64,000 nt of DNA, taken from the sequence record NC_054927.1; one strand, written 5' to 3'. The stretch is from Escherichia phage vB_EcoM_Ozark. Shown in pieces: positions 60 to 38,711 of the stretch; the stretch's first letter is position 1; each line of letters starts with the position of its first letter. The notes below the pieces were generated by a model. The model worked only from the letters and a program-made list of their open reading frames with translations. It had not been told where the DNA came from and did not search any database. The position numbers and the translations under genes are program-made.

Positions 60-377
60 TTATTCTTTAGGGAAGTTTTTAGAATATGCATCATAAAGCT
101 TATTTCCAATACGGCGGAAAACTCTAGCCGCAAAACGATTTTCTGGGTTTTTAATCATGATTTGCATCATATAAGTACCCGCGTCAGAAAGAGCTTCTTC
201 ATAGTACCCGTTAATTTCTTTAAGAGTCCTACGTTTACCACCAGGACCATCAACAGTGATTTTCCATTTACCTGTAGAAGTGCGACTTGGCGGCTCAACT
301 TGTTCAATCCAGATATAACCGCCTTCTACACGTTGTCCTTGGGCAGATTCTGCAATAAATTCTTTAAACGTTTTCAT
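60..377 (-). CDS. internal protein (capsid-targeted, IP-like)
   Basis: 105 aa; N-terminus MKTFKEFIAE matches the internal-protein leader with an L/I-x-E prohead-protease site; RBS GGAA; sits next to e as ipII/ipIII do in T4. Confidence 0.65.
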   Translation of the reverse strand: MKTFKEFIAESAQGQRVEGGYIWIEQVEPPSRTSTGKWKITVDGPGGKRRTLKEINGYYEEALSDAGTYMMQIMIKNPENRFAARVFRRIGNKLYDAYSKNFPKE

Positions 378-448: not shown

Positions 449-1417
<969 letters not shown>

Positions 1418-3589: not shown

Positions 3590-3657
3590 TTATTTCTCCG
3601 TTTCTGTATTTGTTTTGATAAGTCTATAATAACACCGTCCTTGGTGTTTGTACACAA

Positions 3658-3921
3658 TTATTTCATATTATTGAAATGTTCTTCTGCAATTTCGTCGTTA
3701 TCATGGTAAACTTTAGAAGACAGTTTAACATAACCTTCAGCAGTGAACATGTTAATCACAACCTTTACAGTATACCACTGACCATCTTCATTACCCATTA
3801 CTGCATAGGTTTCAAACATCGGATGATCAGGACCGATAACTTTAATATCATTCACTGTACGACCAAAATCTTCTGAAACACATTTCATAAAGAAGTTGAA
3901 CAGTTCGCCGTAATTATCCAT
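3658..3921 (-). CDS. hypothetical protein
   Basis: Track start is TTG; first ATG with GGAG RBS gives MDNYGELFNFF..., 87 aa. Confidence 0.45.
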   Translation of the reverse strand: MDNYGELFNFFMKCVSEDFGRTVNDIKVIGPDHPMFETYAVMGNEDGQWYTVKVVINMFTAEGYVKLSSKVYHDNDEIAEEHFNNMK

Positions 3922-3964
3922 TTCATTCTCCAAGTTGTTTTCTGTATCAGTAGTTGATAGTTGT

Positions 3965-3994
3965 ATAGTACCATGGAAGGACAAGGATGTAAAC
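3965..3994 (-). promoter_or_regulatory. early-type promoter (GTTTAC-N18-TACTAT, minus strand)
   Basis: Plus strand atagta-N18-gtaaac just upstream of the 3921 ATG; same architecture as the IP-gene promoters. Confidence 0.4.
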
Positions 3995-4130
3995 AGTTTT
4001 GTGAAAAAATTTTTAAAAAGTTTTAGGGAATTCTAGGGTCAGGAGGGGCAATTAAAAGGTAGGATAATATATTATAAAGGGTATAAACTAAATGATGCCT
4101 AGAGAGGCCCGGAAAGGCCTAGATACCAAA

Positions 4131-4157
4131 AAGCCCCAACCTTTCGGTCGGGGCTAA
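4131..4157 (-). terminator. intrinsic terminator hairpin (minus strand)
   Basis: Reverse complement reads AGCCCCGACC-GAAA-GGTTGGGGCT followed by TTTTT; immediately 3' of 4163..4636. Confidence 0.6.
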
Positions 4158-4162
4158 GAATG

Positions 4163-4636
4163 TTATTTGATTTGTTTAGCAGACCAAATGCGGTCTTTAA
4201 TAATTTTTTGGATGTCTTCAACATACTCAAGAGAGTGAGCATGTGGGTTATCTTTAAAACTATAAGCACGAGCTAACTTTTGACCTTCAGTTTTGATTAC
4301 TAAAAGCTCTTTAAGGATAGCTTCATATCTGGAGATAATTCCTTTAACAATATTTTTTTCTTGTGTAGCTTTAGGATCTGCTTTAGGAGCAGGTTTACCC
4401 GAAGCCTTTGCAAAAGCAGCGCCAGTAGCAACTAAACTTTTCCAGGCCATACTAACTGCATTCCCTGTAAATCCTTCGGCTTTCATATCACGAGCAAATT
4501 GGAATCGTGATTCATCGGAAGCATCTTTATAGGAATATTTACCCGCGGCAATGGCTGCTTTTGCGACAGCTTGAATTTCGGTGCTAGACGCTTCATTTAA
4601 CACCGCTTCATTTAAAAATTGAGTATATGATTTCAT
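4163..4636 (-). CDS. candidate capsid-targeted internal protein-like gene
   Basis: 157 aa; N-terminus MKSYTQFLNEAVLNEA resembles the MKTYQEFIAEA leader, with two L-x-E motifs; RBS GGAA; late promoter upstream; Ala/Lys-rich body. Confidence 0.6.
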   Translation of the reverse strand: MKSYTQFLNEAVLNEASSTEIQAVAKAAIAAGKYSYKDASDESRFQFARDMKAEGFTGNAVSMAWKSLVATGAAFAKASGKPAPKADPKATQEKNIVKGIISRYEAILKELLVIKTEGQKLARAYSFKDNPHAHSLEYVEDIQKIIKDRIWSAKQIK

Positions 4637-4674
4637 CTTATTTCCTGTTTTAATTCGTGAATTTAATATACTAA

Positions 4675-4682
4675 TATTTATA
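4675..4682 (-). promoter_or_regulatory. late promoter TATAAATA (minus strand)
   Basis: Plus-strand tatttata about 40 nt upstream of the 4636 ATG, between terminator and RBS. Confidence 0.5.
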
Positions 4683-4691
4683 CTAAAAAAG

Positions 4692-4718
4692 CCCCAACCT
4701 TTTGGCTGGGGCTAAGCC
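4692..4718 (-). terminator. intrinsic terminator hairpin (minus strand), likely end of the tRNA operon
   Basis: Reverse complement AGCCCCAGCC-AAAA-GGTTGGGGCT plus TTTTT; near-identical to the 4131..4157 hairpin. Confidence 0.6.
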
Positions 4719-4765
4719 TTGCGGCAACCTTGTCGGGGTTCCACCTGCTAAGGCAAGTGTTTGTA

Positions 4766-4856
4766 CGAAACGCCGGGATTCGAACCCGGTTATTAAGTAG
4801 TTGACGCTACTCAATATTTTTAAAAGGCCATATCTCAACCATATCCGAACGTTCCG
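4766..4856 (-). ncRNA. tRNA-like stable RNA candidate (acceptor stem plus T-arm, non-canonical body)
   Basis: T-arm CCGGG-TTCGAAT-CCCGG and a 7-bp acceptor pairing CGGAACG/CGTTTCG, but no clean D or anticodon arm; position matches T4 stable RNA species 1/2. Confidence 0.3.
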
Positions 4857-5029
4857 TCAAAAACGCTACTCGGCTTACGGCAAAGATATTTCCTCGAATC
4901 GATAATTCGGTGCGCCGTTTCTGCTGTGATATAAGGGGGCATTAACAAAACATAAAGATTTATTAATGCCAGTCCTTAAACAGGGAACATCAGTCCGACG
5001 ACTTGCCGGTAGCGACCCGGCTTCTTGTC

Positions 5030-5105
5030 TGGTCGAGGCAGTAGGGATCGAACCTACGACCCAGGACTTAGAAGGTCCTTGCTCTTCCTTCTGAGCTATG
5101 CCCCG
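5030..5105 (-). tRNA. tRNA-Arg (anticodon UCU)
   Basis: Hand-folded cloverleaf: acceptor CGGGGCA/UGCCUCG, anticodon loop CUUCUAA, T-loop UUCGAUC, CCA encoded. Confidence 0.8.
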
Positions 5106-5109
5106 TAAT

Positions 5110-5185
5110 TGGGGTGACCGATGGGAGTCGAACCCATGACTACGAGAATCACAATCTCGAGTTCTACCAACTGAACTACGGCCAC
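5110..5185 (-). tRNA. tRNA-His (anticodon GUG)
   Basis: Hand-folded: anticodon stem CGAGA/UCUCG, loop UUGUGAU, discriminator C, CCA encoded. Confidence 0.75.
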
Positions 5186-5299
5186 ATTAATACCTACTCC
5201 AATAATCAAGATGTCTTCACACGAAATTAAGAGAAGAGTGATCAGTTCAACCCCTATAATCGCGTCAAGTAGATATTAATGTGACAGTTGTCACAAATT

Positions 5300-5374
5300 T
5301 GGCGGACGTGATAGGATTCGAACCTATAACCAATCGCTTAACAGGCGATCGCTCTGCCATTGAGCTACACATCC
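5300..5374 (-). tRNA. tRNA-Asn (anticodon GUU)
   Basis: Hand-folded: D-arm GCUC/GAGC, anticodon stem AUCGC/GCGAU, loop CUGUUAA, CCA encoded. Confidence 0.75.
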
Positions 5375-5378
5375 AAAT

Positions 5379-5465
5379 TGGTGGGGAGTGGTGGAGTCGA
5401 ACCACCCGAGTCGCAATGACAATGGATTTACAGTCCACACCGCTACCTCTACGGGATAACTCCCC
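5379..5465 (-). tRNA. tRNA-Tyr (anticodon GUA), long variable arm
   Basis: 87 nt; acceptor GGGGAGU/ACUCCCC, anticodon loop CUGUAAA, T-loop UUCGACU, CCA encoded. Confidence 0.75.
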
Positions 5466-5478
5466 TTAATTCTTAATT

Positions 5479-5553
5479 TGGTGGCCCTGGGTGGAATTGA
5501 ACCACCATCTGGCGATTATGAGTCGCTTGCTTGAACCTTCCAGCTACAGGGCC
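5479..5553 (-). tRNA. tRNA-Ile or Met (anticodon CAU)
   Basis: Hand-folded: acceptor GGCCCUG/CAGGGCC, anticodon loop CUCAUAA; CAU could be Met or lysidine-modified Ile. Confidence 0.75.
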
Positions 5554-5554
5554 T

Positions 5555-5630
5555 TGGTGCTGATTGACGGAATCGAACCGCCGACCTTCTCATTACAAGT
5601 GAGTTGCTCTACCTACTGAGCTAAATCAGC
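5555..5630 (-). tRNA. tRNA-Thr (anticodon UGU)
   Basis: Hand-folded: acceptor GCUGAUU/AAUCAGC, anticodon loop CUUGUAA, CCA encoded. Confidence 0.8.
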
Positions 5631-5635
5631 AAAAC

Positions 5636-5725
5636 TGGCGGAGGCGATAGGATTTGAACCTATGAGTCGCCGGAGCGACTGCCGGTTTTCAAGACCGGTG
5701 CATTAAACCACTCTGCCACGCCTCC
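5636..5725 (-). tRNA. tRNA-Ser (anticodon UGA), long variable arm
   Basis: 90 nt; acceptor GGAGGCG/CGCCUCC, anticodon stem CCGGU/ACCGG, loop CUUGAAA, CCA encoded. Confidence 0.8.
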
Positions 5726-5727
5726 AG

Positions 5728-5801
5728 TCTCCATACAAGGATTTGAACCTTGGACCTCCTGATCCCAAATCAGGCGCTCTACCAAACTGAGCTACACGGA
5801 G
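5728..5801 (-). tRNA. tRNA-Pro (anticodon UGG)
   Basis: Hand-folded: acceptor CUCCGUG/UAUGGAG with G-U pairs, anticodon loop UUUGGGA; CCA not encoded. Confidence 0.75.
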
Positions 5802-5811
5802 TAAATTAAAT

Positions 5812-5885
<74 letters not shown>

Positions 5886-5890
5886 AAATT

Positions 5891-5977
5891 TGGTGCGAGA
5901 AGTGGGACTCGAACCCACAAGGAAATCATTCCGCAGCATTTTAAGTGCTGTGCCTTTACCAATTTGACCATTCTCGC
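5891..5977 (-). tRNA. tRNA-Leu (anticodon UAA), long variable arm
   Basis: 87 nt; acceptor GCGAGAA/UUCUCGC, anticodon loop CUUAAAA, T-loop UUCGAGU, CCA encoded. Confidence 0.8.
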
Positions 5978-5983
5978 GTTATA

Positions 5984-6592
5984 TTATTTATTACGTGAAA
6001 AAGACTGTTCTATCAATTCTGGACACTTTCGTTCTATCCATTTTCTAGCTTTTTGTGGGCTTATACCTATTATTTTAGCAGCTTTACTAACCCATCCAAA
6101 TTTAGAATAATCGATTTTAACTAATTCTTCGTAAATTTCATCAGTTAAAATCTTTTCATTAATATTTACCAGTAAATGATATAATTTGTTATCATTAGCA
6201 ATTTTAATGAATCTTTTATAGTTTCCGCCTTTACTTAAACCTAATGAAGTAATTGCAGATGATATAGTAGCCGAATTTAATAATGCGTTTAAAATTTCTT
6301 CATCACTAACATTATAACGCTTTTTATTATTTTTAATATTTTTACCAGCAAAAGTATCAGTTTGCGAATGACAGTTTGGACATAATAATCTTAAATTTGA
6401 TTTAAGATGATTTTTGTTATTTCCATCAATATGGTCTAATTGCAGAACAATATGCTTATTTTGCCATTTTGAAATTTTACAAATTGCACACTCATATGGA
6501 AAAATATTTTCTTTTATTATTTTGTCTTTCAGCTTTCCTGTACTAAAATTTGGATGTTTTCCTTCAAAAATTTCAGCTAATTTAGTATCCAT
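5984..6592 (-). CDS. HNH endonuclease, likely free-standing homing endonuclease
   Basis: CAIC...LDHIDGNNKNHLKSNLRLLCPNCH is a textbook HNH motif; C-terminal helix-turn-helix-like segment; track start is TTG, moved to ATG (MDTKLAEIF...); stop 7 nt from tRNA-Leu. Confidence 0.7.
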   Translation of the reverse strand: MDTKLAEIFEGKHPNFSTGKLKDKIIKENIFPYECAICKISKWQNKHIVLQLDHIDGNNKNHLKSNLRLLCPNCHSQTDTFAGKNIKNNKKRYNVSDEEILNALLNSATISSAITSLGLSKGGNYKRFIKIANDNKLYHLLVNINEKILTDEIYEELVKIDYSKFGWVSKAAKIIGISPQKARKWIERKCPELIEQSFSRNK

Positions 6593-6702
6593 AATATGAT
6601 TCCCAATTATTAACAAAGGCTCTCAAGCAAGAACCCTTGATGATAGAGGGTATTAATCAGTGCGATATGAGTTAATAATAACAAATAATTCTTAAAGCAT
6701 AT

Positions 6703-7621: not shown

Positions 7622-7855
7622 TTATTTTTTACGAAAAATTGATTTATTTTCTGCTGCCCATTTTTCAATAACTGCAGCAGGACCAGTAACAACAATTTTA
7701 TCACCGTAATCTTCTGCAGCGAGTTGACCGAAATTATCTAATGCATCACGAAGAACTCCATGAGGCATTTCGCCCATTTTATCCTTCTTGCCAATGTAAA
7801 TAAACTCAACTTTTACATCAACAGCTTCAGCAATAAATTCTTGATATGTTTTCAT
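7622..7855 (-). CDS. internal protein (IPI-like, capsid-targeted)
   Basis: Start set at second ATG with GGAG RBS: MKTYQEFIAEAVD..., 77 aa; position matches ipI (between tRNAs and 57B). Confidence 0.65.
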   Translation of the reverse strand: MKTYQEFIAEAVDVKVEFIYIGKKDKMGEMPHGVLRDALDNFGQLAAEDYGDKIVVTGPAAVIEKWAAENKSIFRKK

Positions 7856-7880
7856 TTTATTCTCCAATTTCACATTTGTT

Positions 7881-7919
7881 TTGATAGGGTAATAGTATCA
7901 CTACTAAAACCCCGTGTAA
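7881..7919 (-). promoter_or_regulatory. promoter-hairpin cassette (PeSL-like), copy 2
   Basis: gatagggtaatagtatcactac followed by gtaaacaactttgtgaaatt; same core as copies 1 and 3. Confidence 0.5.
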
Positions 7920-7940
7920 ACAACTTTGTGAAATTGTTTA

Positions 7941-8231
7941 TTACAAAAGATTTTTAGCAATAATCTTGAGATGTGCTGCAGAAATGTGTTTAGCTTTAAA
8001 CAACGCAGTTTCTTCGGCAGGAGAGATAACGATTGTAGCACCATCCTTTTTAGCAGACCACCCATCACCTAGGTAAACAGTACCTTTGATTTCTTCGCCA
8101 TCAACCAGACTAATCATTGGTTTACCTTCTCGTCCTTTATTTGCTTTAATAACTTCAGAAGTAAGAGTAGCTTCGGTAATGGTAGAAACCGGGGTAGTTG
8201 TAGTAGAAGTAAATTCTTTAAATGTTTTCAT
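7941..8231 (-). CDS. internal protein-like (capsid-targeted)
   Basis: 96 aa; MKTFKEFTSTTTTPVSTITE with I-T-E cleavage motif; RBS AGGAA. Confidence 0.6.
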   Translation of the reverse strand: MKTFKEFTSTTTTPVSTITEATLTSEVIKANKGREGKPMISLVDGEEIKGTVYLGDGWSAKKDGATIVISPAEETALFKAKHISAAHLKIIAKNLL

Positions 8232-8252
8232 TTTTATTTTCCTAATTAATTT

Positions 8253-8292
8253 TGATGAGGTAATAGTATCACTACCTCATCAGTATGTAAAC
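8253..8292 (-). promoter_or_regulatory. promoter-hairpin cassette (PeSL-like), copy 3
   Basis: tgatgaggTAATAGTATCACTAcctcatca (10-bp inverted repeat around the same core) followed by gtaaacaactttgtgaaatt. Confidence 0.5.
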
Positions 8293-8304
8293 AACTTTGT
8301 GAAA

Positions 8305-36559: not shown

Positions 36560-36560
<1 letters not shown>

Positions 36561-36808
36561 TGGAAGGTTTAATTGAAGCTATTAAATCAAACGACCTCGT
36601 AGCCGCTCGTAAATTATTTGCTGAAGCCATGGCTGCAAGAACGATTGATTTAATTAAAGAAGAAAAAATCGCTATCGCTCGTAATTTCTTAATCGAAGGT
36701 GAAGAACCTGAAGACGAGGATGAAGATGATGACGAAGATAGCGATGATAAAGACGACAAAAAAGACAAAGACTCTGACGAAGATGACGAAGACGAGGATG
36801 ATGAATAA
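36560..36808 (+). CDS. 67: prohead core protein gp67
   Basis: 82 aa with strongly acidic Asp/Glu-rich C-terminal tail; synteny. Confidence 0.8.
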
Positions 36809-37233
36809 TGCTTCTGATCCCTGAAACTCATGAATTAGTTCTCGAGAATGTCGAAGCACTTATTCCTGAAGCACAGGGTCGCTTTGACGAATTGTCTTCT
36901 GCTTTAAATAAAGACGATATAAATACAATTGTCGAGAATATGCTTGATGATGAAACTGATTTAGCGGTTGCATTAGCTTCTATTAATGAAAATATGCCGT
37001 TAAATGAATTTATCGTTAAACATGTTTCTGCCCGTGGTGAAATTACTCGCACTAAAGATCGCAAAACGCGTGAACGTAATGCATTTCAAACCACTGGGCT
37101 GTCTAAAGCAAAACGTAGACAAATTGCTCGTAAAGCTACCAAAACGAAGATTGCCAATCCAGCAGGTCAATCTCGTGCTCAGCGTAAGCGTAAAAAAGCT
37201 CTTAAACGCCGTAAAGCATTAGGATTAAGCTAA
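36808..37233 (+). CDS. 68: prohead core protein gp68
   Basis: 141 aa, basic C-terminus; synteny. Confidence 0.8.
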
Positions 37234-37871
37234 TGAATGAACCCCAATTACTAATTGAAACTTGGGGTCAACCTGGCGAAATTATTGATGGTGTGCCAAT
37301 GCTCGAATCCCACGATGGAAAAGACTTAGGTTTAAAACCGGGTTTATACATCGAAGGAATATTCATGCAAGCGGAAGTCGTCAATAGAAATAAACGTCTT
37401 TATCCAAAACGCATATTAGAAAAAGCGGTAAAAGACTATATTAATGAGCAAGTTTTAACTAAACAAGCTCTCGGAGAATTAAATCATCCTCCACGCGCTA
37501 ATGTTGACCCAATGCAAGCCGCTATCATTATAGAAGATATGTGGTGGAAAGGAAATGACGTATACGGACGAGCTCGTGTTATTGAAGGTGACCACGGTCC
37601 TGGAGATAAATTAGCAGCTAATATTCGTGCCGGATGGATTCCAGGAGTTTCTTCTCGTGGATTAGGTTCATTGACTGACACAAATAAAGGTTATCGTATC
37701 GTAAACGAAGGATTCAAATTAACTGTAGGTGTTGATGCAGTATGGGGTCCAAGTGCTCCAGATGCATGGGTAACTCCTAAGGAAATTACCGAATCACAGA
37801 CGGCGGAAGCCGATACAAGTGCCGATGACGCCTATATGGCTCTCGCAGAGGCCATGAAAAAAGCGTTATAA
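37233..37871 (+). CDS. 21: prohead core protease gp21
   Basis: 212 aa; length and synteny. Confidence 0.9.
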   Translation: MNEPQLLIETWGQPGEIIDGVPMLESHDGKDLGLKPGLYIEGIFMQAEVVNRNKRLYPKRILEKAVKDYINEQVLTKQALGELNHPPRANVDPMQAAIIIEDMWWKGNDVYGRARVIEGDHGPGDKLAANIRAGWIPGVSSRGLGSLTDTNKGYRIVNEGFKLTVGVDAVWGPSAPDAWVTPKEITESQTAEADTSADDAYMALAEAMKKAL

Positions 37872-37901: not shown

Positions 37902-38711
37902 ATGCTTAAAGAACAACTGATTGCCGAAGCGCAGAAAATTGATGCTTCCGTTGCTCTTGATAGTATTTTCGAATCAGTTAATATTTCTCCGGAAGCAAAA
38001 GAAACTTTCGGCACTGTATTCGAAGCTACCGTCAAGCAGCACGCCGTTAAATTAGCTGAATCTCATATCGCTAAAATTGCTGAAAAAGCAGAAGAAGAAG
38101 TAGAAAAAAATAAAGAAGAAGCCGAAGAAAAAGCTGAGAAGAAAATCGCTGAGCAAGCTTCTAAATTCATTGACCATCTTGCAAAAGAATGGCTCGCTGA
38201 AAATAAATTAGCAGTTGATAAAGGCATCAAAGCCGAACTGTTTGAATCCATGCTTGGTGGATTAAAAGAGCTCTTTGTTGAACACAACGTTGTTGTTCCA
38301 GAAGAATCAGTTGATGTTGTAGCTGAAATGGAAGAAGAGCTGCAAGAACATAAAGAAGAATCAGCTCGTCTGTTCGAAGAACTCAATATGCGCGACGCAT
38401 ATATCAATTATGTGCAGCGTGAAGTGGCATTGAGCGAAAGTACTAAAGATCTGACTGAGTCTCAAAAAGAAAAAGTCTCTGCTCTGGTCGAAGGTATGGA
38501 TTATTCAGATGAATTCTCAAATAAATTGAGTGCCATCGTAGAAATGGTGAAGAAGTCTAATAAAGATGAAAGCACTATTACTGAGGGTATAAATACTCCT
38601 GATACTGAAGCAGCCGGACTAAATTTCGTCACTGAAGCTGTAGAAGATAAATCTGCATCTGGTGCAGAAGATATTGTAAGTGTATATGCGAAAGTCGCAT
38701 CTCGTTTCTAA
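37902..38711 (+). CDS. 22: prohead scaffold protein gp22
   Basis: 269 aa acidic coiled-coil protein; late promoter tataaata near 37867. Confidence 0.85.
   Translation: MLKEQLIAEAQKIDASVALDSIFESVNISPEAKETFGTVFEATVKQHAVKLAESHIAKIAEKAEEEVEKNKEEAEEKAEKKIAEQASKFIDHLAKEWLAENKLAVDKGIKAELFESMLGGLKELFVEHNVVVPEESVDVVAEMEEELQEHKEESARLFEELNMRDAYINYVQREVALSESTKDLTESQKEKVSALVEGMDYSDEFSNKLSAIVEMVKKSNKDESTITEGINTPDTEAAGLNFVTEAVEDKSASGAEDIVSVYAKVASRF

Follow-up and report, generated by a model that had tools for sequence, protein, structure and literature searches.

We examined a 64,000-nt stretch of the genome of Escherichia phage vB_EcoM_Ozark (NC_054927.1), here referred to as the window, around a minus-strand open reading frame (ORF) of 157 codons at 4163..4636. 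This reading frame, here denoted ORF157, lies between the homologues of the T4 genes rnaC and e.8 and is bracketed by two nearly identical terminator hairpins. We favour, with somewhat better than even confidence, the view that ORF157 is a late-expressed accessory gene for a previously unnamed internal (capsid-targeted) protein, that it occupies a third locus for such genes and that T4 has lost the cassette. Promoter use, packaging, cleavage, injection and function of ORF157 are predicted here from its sequence. A first-pass annotation of the window had described a repeat-flanked single-gene cassette encoding a candidate new capsid-targeted protein, a module inserted or exchanged by recombination whose product could be an injected effector. 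All the sequence features which it listed were confirmed at their positions, and its interpretation was partly supported.

The leader of ORF157 matches a capsid-targeting sequence

The internal proteins (IPs) of T-even phages are diverse, and the capsid-targeting sequence (CTS) is their sole common part (PMC3012670). Ten CTS residues suffice for the packaging of foreign proteins (PMC9026906). According to the account in PMC9026906 of the mutagenesis of the IPIII CTS (Mullaney & Black 1996), targeting depends mainly on residues 4 and 7, and processing on residues 8 and 10. ORF157 starts with MKSYTQFLNEAVLNEA, and its codons 1-15 (4592..4636, minus strand) form the CTS-like propeptide of MKSYTQFLNE-AVLNE-A, of which the first ten residues are to be compared with MKTYQEFIAE of T4 IPIII. 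The aromatic residue at position 4 and the Phe at position 7 that serve targeting are both present (Tyr4 and Phe7), as are the Leu or Ile at position 8 and the Glu at position 10 of a site for the prohead protease gp21 (Leu8-Asn9-Glu10, followed by Ala11). The proposed resemblance to the leader MKTYQEFIAEA therefore extends to the four critical positions defined by mutagenesis, namely Tyr4, Phe7, Leu8 (Ile8 in T4) and Glu10.

Two L-x-E motifs of the kind cleaved by the prohead protease had also been described, and they were found at residues 8-10 and 13-15, together with a third one, new to this analysis, at residues 108-110. The second motif, Leu13-Asn14-Glu15 followed by Ala16, is again of the gp21 type, and gp21 is predicted to cut after Glu10 and Glu15. 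The presence of two L-N-E sites is due to a 15-nt tandem duplication in the leader region (4589..4615, minus strand; 12-nt exact copies at 4589-4600 and 4604-4615), which encodes LNEAV-LNEAS and doubles the L-N-E-A site. Homologues of 153 or 154 amino acids (aa) are without the duplication, and the alignment shows an indel of 4-5 residues at that point.

A search of all six frames of the window for the pattern MK[STAN][YF]x[EQDK]F returned five occurrences, each at the beginning of a minus-strand ORF, against a chance expectation of about 0.06 as roughly estimated from residue frequencies. Four of the five are genes of the two classic IP loci, while the fifth is ORF157. At the ipI locus, the pattern begins the IPI homologue (Pfam IPI_T4, E 7.5e-54), and it also begins a 77-aa "internal virion protein" (7622..7855; phrog_8111). 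At the ipII/ipIII locus, it begins a 105-aa ORF starting with MKTFKEFIAES (60..377), whose family, phrog_3966, is labelled "unknown function" despite the leader, and an ORF which begins at position 43 with MKTYQEFITEAAIN and leaves the window at its edge.

The leader is kept in most of the aligned homologues of ORF157, down to an identity of 39-43% in the protein body, so the expectation that homologues would retain it was borne out. Taken together, these comparisons support a true CTS match rather than a chance likeness. The prohead protease gp21, which would be expected to remove such a leader, is encoded in the same window (37233..37871, plus strand; Peptidase_S77, E 1.5e-111), as are the scaffold protein gp22 (37902..38711; T4_CASP, E 2e-89) and gp67 (36560..36808; GP67, E 1e-43).

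The gene lies in a putative late promoter-ORF-terminator unit between direct repeats

The segments 4128-4158 and 4686-4716 form a 31-nt direct repeat, with 28 of 31 positions identical and the two copies 558 nt apart. Each copy was scored as an intrinsic terminator on the minus strand, made up of a 10-bp stem, a loop of 4 nt (GAAA or AAAA) and a T-run, and the three mismatches between them preserve the pairing of the stem (G-U/A-U swapped to A-U/G-U). Their folding energies were -20.5 kcal/mol (4128-4158) and -24.4 kcal/mol (4686-4716), with z about -3.9 and none of 200 shuffled sequences being as stable. The near-identical terminator hairpins of about 31 bp that were said to bracket the gene are thus real. 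No more than these two copies occur in the 64 kb at up to three mismatches, where 0 are expected (100 shuffles), and the repeat was rejected on this ground as a member of a dispersed repeat family.

The upstream copy (4686..4716, minus strand; stem-loop 4713->4690 plus U-run) is the intrinsic terminator at which transcription of the tRNA/rnaD/rnaC cluster ends. T4 carries a single homologous hairpin, which X03016 marks as a possible terminator following species 1 RNA. It is the same element at the homologous position; in the window, it is duplicated and its two copies enclose a gene. The downstream copy (4128..4158, minus strand; stem-loop 4155->4132 plus U-run) starts 4 nt past the stop codon of ORF157 and is the intrinsic terminator of this gene.

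A T4-type late-promoter motif, TATAAATA, is present on the minus strand at 4675..4682, as had been noted before. It starts 3 nt past the upstream copy of the repeat and lies 38 nt ahead of the ATG, and its promoter activity is putative. The GGAA ribosome-binding site of the first-pass annotation is part of a Shine-Dalgarno AGGAA that can be read from the sequence at 4642..4646 (minus strand), 5 nt upstream of the ATG. The motif TATAAATA is enriched in the window (24 occurrences vs 9.1 +/- 2.6 expected). Every other occupied locus of the survey has a promoter motif at this position, mostly as TATAAATA, and as AATAAATA in the Mosigvirus-type genomes L010 and L011 (L numbers denote compared genomes). 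Elsewhere in the window, two TATAAATA motifs 13 nt apart lie at 957-977 (minus strand), immediately ahead of the lysozyme gene e (449..943). Gene e of T4 is under late-promoter control, which fits this pair.

ORF157 belongs to a conserved and nearly unnamed family

ORF157 matches the profile phrog_2280 over its full length (residues 1-157; E 7.3e-60), and this PHROG is labelled "unknown function". Homologues were found in 510 of 50,697 phage records, belonging to several genera. Nearly all of these records annotate the protein as "hypothetical" and leave it unnamed; one Klebsiella-phage homologue was labelled "Internal head protein" by its submitter. HMMER, run exhaustively over 1.84 billion representatives, gave 11 matches at E up to 0.001, of which 8 were credible and were family members or fragments of them. 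The other three, weak multi-stretch matches to proteins of great length (P0073-75), seem to be due to low-complexity sequence rich in Ala and Lys and were discarded. As judged from these searches, the family is confined to T4-like phages. We found no meaningful match to ORF157 in Pfam, NCBIfam or PADLOC, and a profile search of the PDB sequences returned nothing.

The protein is Ala/Lys-rich and predicted to be all-alpha, with an isoelectric point (pI) of 9.5, which is close to those of T4 IPII (9.33) and IPIII (9.54). The predicted mature form has 142-147 residues and a pI of about 9.5. In its AlphaFold2 model (predicted local distance difference test, pLDDT, 75), six helices were seen; confidence was low in the leader (pLDDT <50 at residues 4-15), and the helical body follows. 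Foldseek matched this model with its own family, with a weak relative from Serratia phage PS2 and with ferritin-type helical proteins, the last being meaningless.

The ratio of nonsynonymous to synonymous divergence (dN/dS) is 0.03-0.09 among the homologues (0.04-0.09 vs other genera, with dS saturated at 1.2-3.9), indicating that ORF157 is a real gene under strong purifying selection. Recent recombination was considered as the cause of the identity in the C-terminal half and was rejected, because synonymous sites in this half are no less saturated than those in the rest of the gene. The conservation of this half is hence attributed to selection and not to recent transfer.

Comparison of empty and occupied sites points to loss in T4

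T4 has one copy of the hairpin and no ORF between e.8 and rnaC. The junction alignment showed that the empty sites of T4, T6 and RB9 consist of the left flank, one repeat and the right flank, the breakpoints falling within the 31-bp repeat. Both flanks align with those of T4 gap-free and at 95-100% identity; on the e.8 side, the 206-nt spacer (3922-4127) has 94.7% identity to T4 and is likewise gap-free. Breakpoints inside the repeat together with gap-free flanks mean that the polymorphism corresponds to exactly one promoter, ORF and terminator unit of 558 bp. The alignment of the locus across T4-like genomes, which had been suggested as a check on the cassette, therefore showed T4, T6 and RB9 without the gene and with a single repeat at the same spot.

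The homologue of ORF157 is absent from T4, T6, RB9 and HEMP5 and truncated in SfPhi01, G28 and T4_ev240. With these absences and truncations, and with the variable cassette content described below, the gene is non-essential and variable among close relatives, as is usual for IP genes. The T4 site was matched by about 578 records. Of 40 taken evenly from among these, roughly 5 were empty, which gives an estimated empty fraction of about 12%.

Outside Tequatrovirus, the gene was found at the same site, directly past the tRNA/rnaC cluster, in Mosigvirus (mogra), in Jiaodavirus (KpV477) and in Dhakavirus-like contigs. In mogra, both bracketing hairpins are recognisable though diverged, with GGTTGGGGCTTTTT common to both. 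As the gene occupies the same site in several genera, with saturated dS and a dN/dS of 0.03-0.09, it was probably ancestral at this site and lost from the T4 lineage via recombination between the two terminators. Inverted repeats of GGGC/GCCC are reported as frequent endpoints of deletions in T4 (Mosig et al. 1998, cited in PMC2839356), and both terminator hairpins hold GCCCC...GGGGC-type sequence of this kind.

The opposite direction, in which a mobile promoter-ORF-terminator module recently entered a T4-like empty site, seems to us unlikely. It would agree with the direct repeats around the gene and the breakpoints inside them, with the spread of a second cassette at the site (see below), and with the shuffling of promoter-early stem-loop (PeSL) cassettes that is documented in T4-type phages (Arbiol 2010, PMC2839356; Comeau 2014, PMC4122927). 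However, the divergence of the ORF157 homologues at the same site roughly tracks genus, with dS saturated. Genomes bearing the gene are moreover the large majority, considering the 510 records and the small empty fraction in the spread sample, and Mosigvirus carries diverged versions of both bracketing hairpins. Of the earlier proposal that the module was inserted or exchanged by recombination, the clean repeat-bounded indel and the varied CTS cassettes in other genomes uphold the part on recombination, whereas insertion is a less likely direction than deletion.

The site carries a variable number of related cassettes

We surveyed the interval from rnaC to e.8 in 15 genomes. T4 was empty. One cassette, with an ORF of 157, 153 or 154 aa, was present in the window and in L002, L003, L007, L008 and L011, while L004, L009, L010 and L015 had two cassettes, one of the 157-aa type (154 aa in L010) and one with a 187-aa ORF starting with MKTYAEFLTEA. 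In L012 and L014, a membrane-like 184-aa ORF (phrog_2143) was found with a 205-aa ORF starting with MKTYNEFLNESVLNEA; L013 combined an ORF of the 157-aa type with the 184-aa ORF, and L016 had a 154-aa ORF and further unclassified sequence.

The 187-aa and 205-aa proteins match phrog_2280 (E 1e-53 and 6e-60), and their BLAST similarity to ORF157 is almost nil outside the leader. Since all match PHROG 2280 strongly, we regard the 157-, 187- and 205-aa proteins as divergent paralogues. The 187-aa cassette sits between the terminator stem of ORF157 and the conserved GGTATCTAGG flank, and has its own terminator stem. Among 165 records, 164 carry it at 95-99% identity, with phages of both Tequatrovirus (RB14) and Mosigvirus (PhAPEC2) in their number, and on account of this identity the 187-aa module may have spread recently. 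As a whole, the interval from the rnaC terminator to e.8 is probably a third, variable IP locus, with zero, one or two PHROG 2280 cassettes, each made up of a putative late promoter, an ORF with a CTS and a terminator.

Two further observations were made during the survey. The 184-aa ORF of these JS98-like genomes (L012, 2136-2690; L013; L014) has a hydrophobic N-terminus, MKLLKYLSWILLVPLDF, and no CTS, and phrog_2143 is labelled "unknown function". In RB69 (L019, 11429-11991), the member of the 187-aa family is split into the overlapping annotated ORF149c and ORF148c, either by a frameshift or by a sequencing error in the reference genome.

Comparison with known internal proteins and cassettes

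With T4 IPI-III and Ip4-10, ORF157 shares a leader of the type MK[TS][YF]x[EQ]F[IL]xE followed by Ala, a gp21-type L/I-x-E site, and a protein body dissimilar to those of other IPs. They are likewise small, basic, non-essential and variable among close relatives, in phages with gp21 and a gp22 core. The T4 IP genes differ in lying at ipI (57B-tRNA.4) or at ipII/ipIII (e-denV), whereas ORF157 lies between the rnaC terminator and e.8. Also, the body of ORF157 is strongly conserved across genera, ORF157 has no Pfam family, and its packaging and injection are predicted.

The Ip4-10 variants of T-even phages were reportedly described by Repoila et al. in 1994. Ip4-10 are presented as genes of the two IP loci (PMC2839356, PMC12373910), and for that reason ORF157 is presumed not to be among them, the distinction being drawn by described locus.

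Bas37_0260 offers a close parallel, being an unannotated protein of a T4-like phage that was recognised solely by its N-terminal packaging signal and whose body is without homology to IPI-III. It is an internal protein of the ipI locus and inhibits McrBC (HIDEN-SEQ preprint, 10.1101/2025.11.20.689424). It thus differs in its classic locus and demonstrated target, while ORF157 lies at another locus and is a candidate by its leader.

PeSL cassettes resemble the ORF157 cassette in that single ORFs are bracketed by repeated stem-loop regulatory motifs, with the breakpoints of presence and absence in the repeats. In PeSL cassettes, however, these motifs are a sigma-70-like early promoter with a stem-loop, whereas here a terminator hairpin is followed by a late promoter and there is no sequence homology. 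The sole promoter motif in the cassette is the late-type TATAAATA, and no flanking sigma-70-like early promoter with stem-loop was seen. The resemblance may be taken as one of analogy only. Signs of minicircles were not met with either, though no search aimed at them was made.

PeSL-like elements do occur elsewhere in the window. Near-identical units, aatttcacaaagttgtttaca...gtgatactattacc(c/t)(t/c)atc, precede the IP genes 7622..7855 and 7941..8231, at 7856-7940 and 8232-8300 (minus strand). They are the T4 early-promoter-like motif overlapping an AT-rich stem-loop, that is, the "PeSL-like" IP-associated element of Arbiol 2010 (PMC2839356). The first of these two genes encodes the 77-aa CTS protein, which is acidic (pI 5.8), unlike the basic IPs; its ORF can be extended to a GTG at 7873, with the CTS starting at the ATG at 7855.

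Arguments against an internal protein and alternative roles

Several points weigh against ORF157 being an injected internal protein. IP genes have been placed in two loci only (PMC2839356; PMC12373910), and ORF157 is outside both, at a distance of some 3-4 kb from each of the two in the window; the two-locus placement is a descriptive feature, though, and not a mechanistic requirement. The regulatory surroundings differ as well, the classic IP genes of the window being preceded by an early promoter with an AT-rich stem-loop and ORF157 by TATAAATA and GC-rich terminators, and a lone TATAAATA may arise by chance, since about nine are expected per window. The RB69 annotation of the Karam laboratory uses "internal head protein" elsewhere in that genome and leaves the RB69 family member hypothetical. 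Literature searches for fHe-Yen9-01, JS98, RB69 and Tequatrovirus generally found no virion proteomics or N-terminal data for family members, and the Foldseek search of the AlphaFold2 model against PDB and BFVD gave no functional clue. Finally, the C-terminal half is near-invariant across genera (dN about 0.04), which arms-race effectors do not usually show and which a conserved phage-internal partner would explain just as well.

Perhaps, then, the protein is packaged and serves no anti-defence purpose after injection, being a dispensable component of the prohead core or of the packaged chromosome, for instance a basic, alpha-helical protein which binds DNA or the scaffold and adjusts how the head is assembled or the DNA condensed. 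Residues 88-154, the C-terminal helical hairpin, are near-invariant across genera at saturated synonymous sites and would suit a conserved phage-encoded partner. The basic, Lys/Ala-rich composition and the contacts of IP lysines with DNA phosphates (PMC3012670) point the same way, and no defence or anti-defence model matched ORF157. We nevertheless hold such a role to be improbable, given that the gene is dispensable, with the absences and truncations reported above, and that divergent paralogues in variable number at one site are typical of accessory counter-defence loci. Furthermore, every T4 IP of known role is an anti-restriction protein (PMC12373910; 10.1101/2025.11.20.689424).

Least probable in our view is that the leader-like N-terminus was inherited or recombined without a targeting role and that ORF157 encodes an ordinary, unpackaged late cytoplasmic protein, as the literature without virion association of the family, the locus and the promoter/terminator type unlike those of classic IP genes, and the differences from the T4 CTS at residues 3, 5, 6 and 9 might suggest, for all four experimentally important CTS positions agree, the motif is otherwise confined to IP genes in the window, far above its chance expectation, the leader is conserved where bodies are less than 45% identical and in the 187- and 205-aa paralogues too, and ten such residues are enough for packaging.

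Proposed course of expression and injection

Under the favoured reading of ORF157 as a late internal protein, transcription of the tRNA/rnaD/rnaC cluster would end at the upstream hairpin, and the late promoter TATAAATA directly past it would drive a monocistronic mRNA ending at the second hairpin. The 10-residue N-terminal CTS, through Tyr4 and Phe7, would bind the protein to the gp22 scaffolding core during prohead assembly, after which gp21 may cut after Glu10 and/or Glu15. The basic mature protein, of about 15.5-16 kDa, would remain in the head with the DNA and be injected with it.

Once in the host, it would most likely aid the incoming genome, by analogy with Ip1-3, which are GmrSD inhibitors, and with the McrBC inhibitor Bas37_0260. 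The targets of Ip1, Ip2 and Ip3 are three different GmrSD type IV restriction enzymes, ip4-10 gave no new inhibition that could be reproduced, and several GmrSD variants active on T-even phages have no known inhibitor (Silas et al. 2025, PMC12373910). Homologous recombination between the two terminators, made possible by their being direct repeats, would remove the cassette precisely and produce the state of T4, T6 and RB9. The cassette would then be a clean natural example of gene loss through recombination between duplicated terminators.

It is possible, although we put it forward tentatively, that PHROG 2280 marks an overlooked third IP locus whose injected products neutralise host defence beyond the coverage of Ip1-3. 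If so, its targets might be, for example, the GmrSD variants active on T-even phages that are without a known inhibitor, or another system, and it would in part account for how T4 differs in host range from the many therapeutic Tequatrovirus and Mosigvirus isolates bearing the gene. IPs are currently the best examples of anti-defence proteins delivered ahead of any phage gene expression, and a family with a packaging signal at a third site contrasts with the published two-locus view of their genes. Some 500 sequenced phages have the family, among them many candidates for phage therapy, and it has never been studied, probably because the model phage T4 is without the gene. Current work on injected anti-restriction proteins makes the prediction a timely one.

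Genomic setting and neighbouring features

The window is from a Tequatrovirus, and many genomes of this genus match its region 3600-5200 at 95-97% identity. Throughout its first 10 kb, genes are on the minus strand and follow the order of the T4 map: ipII/ipIII, e, nudE, e.2-e.8, rnaC/rnaD, the tRNA cluster, ipI, 57B, 57A and gene 1. Next downstream of ORF157 is the e.8 homologue (3658..3921, minus strand). On the other side, the homologue of rnaC, or species 1 RNA (4764..4902, minus strand), is 100% identical to T4 and is followed by the rnaD homologue (about 4909-5025, minus strand) and the adjoining tRNA-Arg gene (5030-5105, minus strand). Rfam contains no models for rnaC and rnaD and scored the tRNAs only.

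The tRNA cluster (5030-5977, minus strand) comprises ten genes (Arg, His, Asn, Tyr, Met, Thr, Ser, Pro, Gly and Leu), as compared with eight in T4 (Arg, Ile, Thr, Ser, Pro, Gly, Leu and Gln). The 114-nt spacer between tRNA-His and tRNA-Asn (5186-5299, minus strand) contains the palindrome TGTGACAGTTGTCACA. Directly upstream of the cluster, a 210-aa ORF (5984-6616, minus strand) has an HNH-like motif (HIDGNNKNH...CPNCH), with no Pfam match at E <= 0.001. T4 has no gene there, and its segB (GIY-YIG) is at a different position, between tRNA-Arg and tRNA-Ile. The 210-aa ORF is probably a homing endonuclease different from segB.

In vB_Eco_EL, Shigella phage A2 and mogra, an extra ORF of about 115 aa (about 360 nt) is located between tRNA-Arg and rnaD (L003 2423-2773; L004 3103-3453; L005 1801-2145). 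Neither the window nor T4 has this ORF, which makes it a further small indel of the region.

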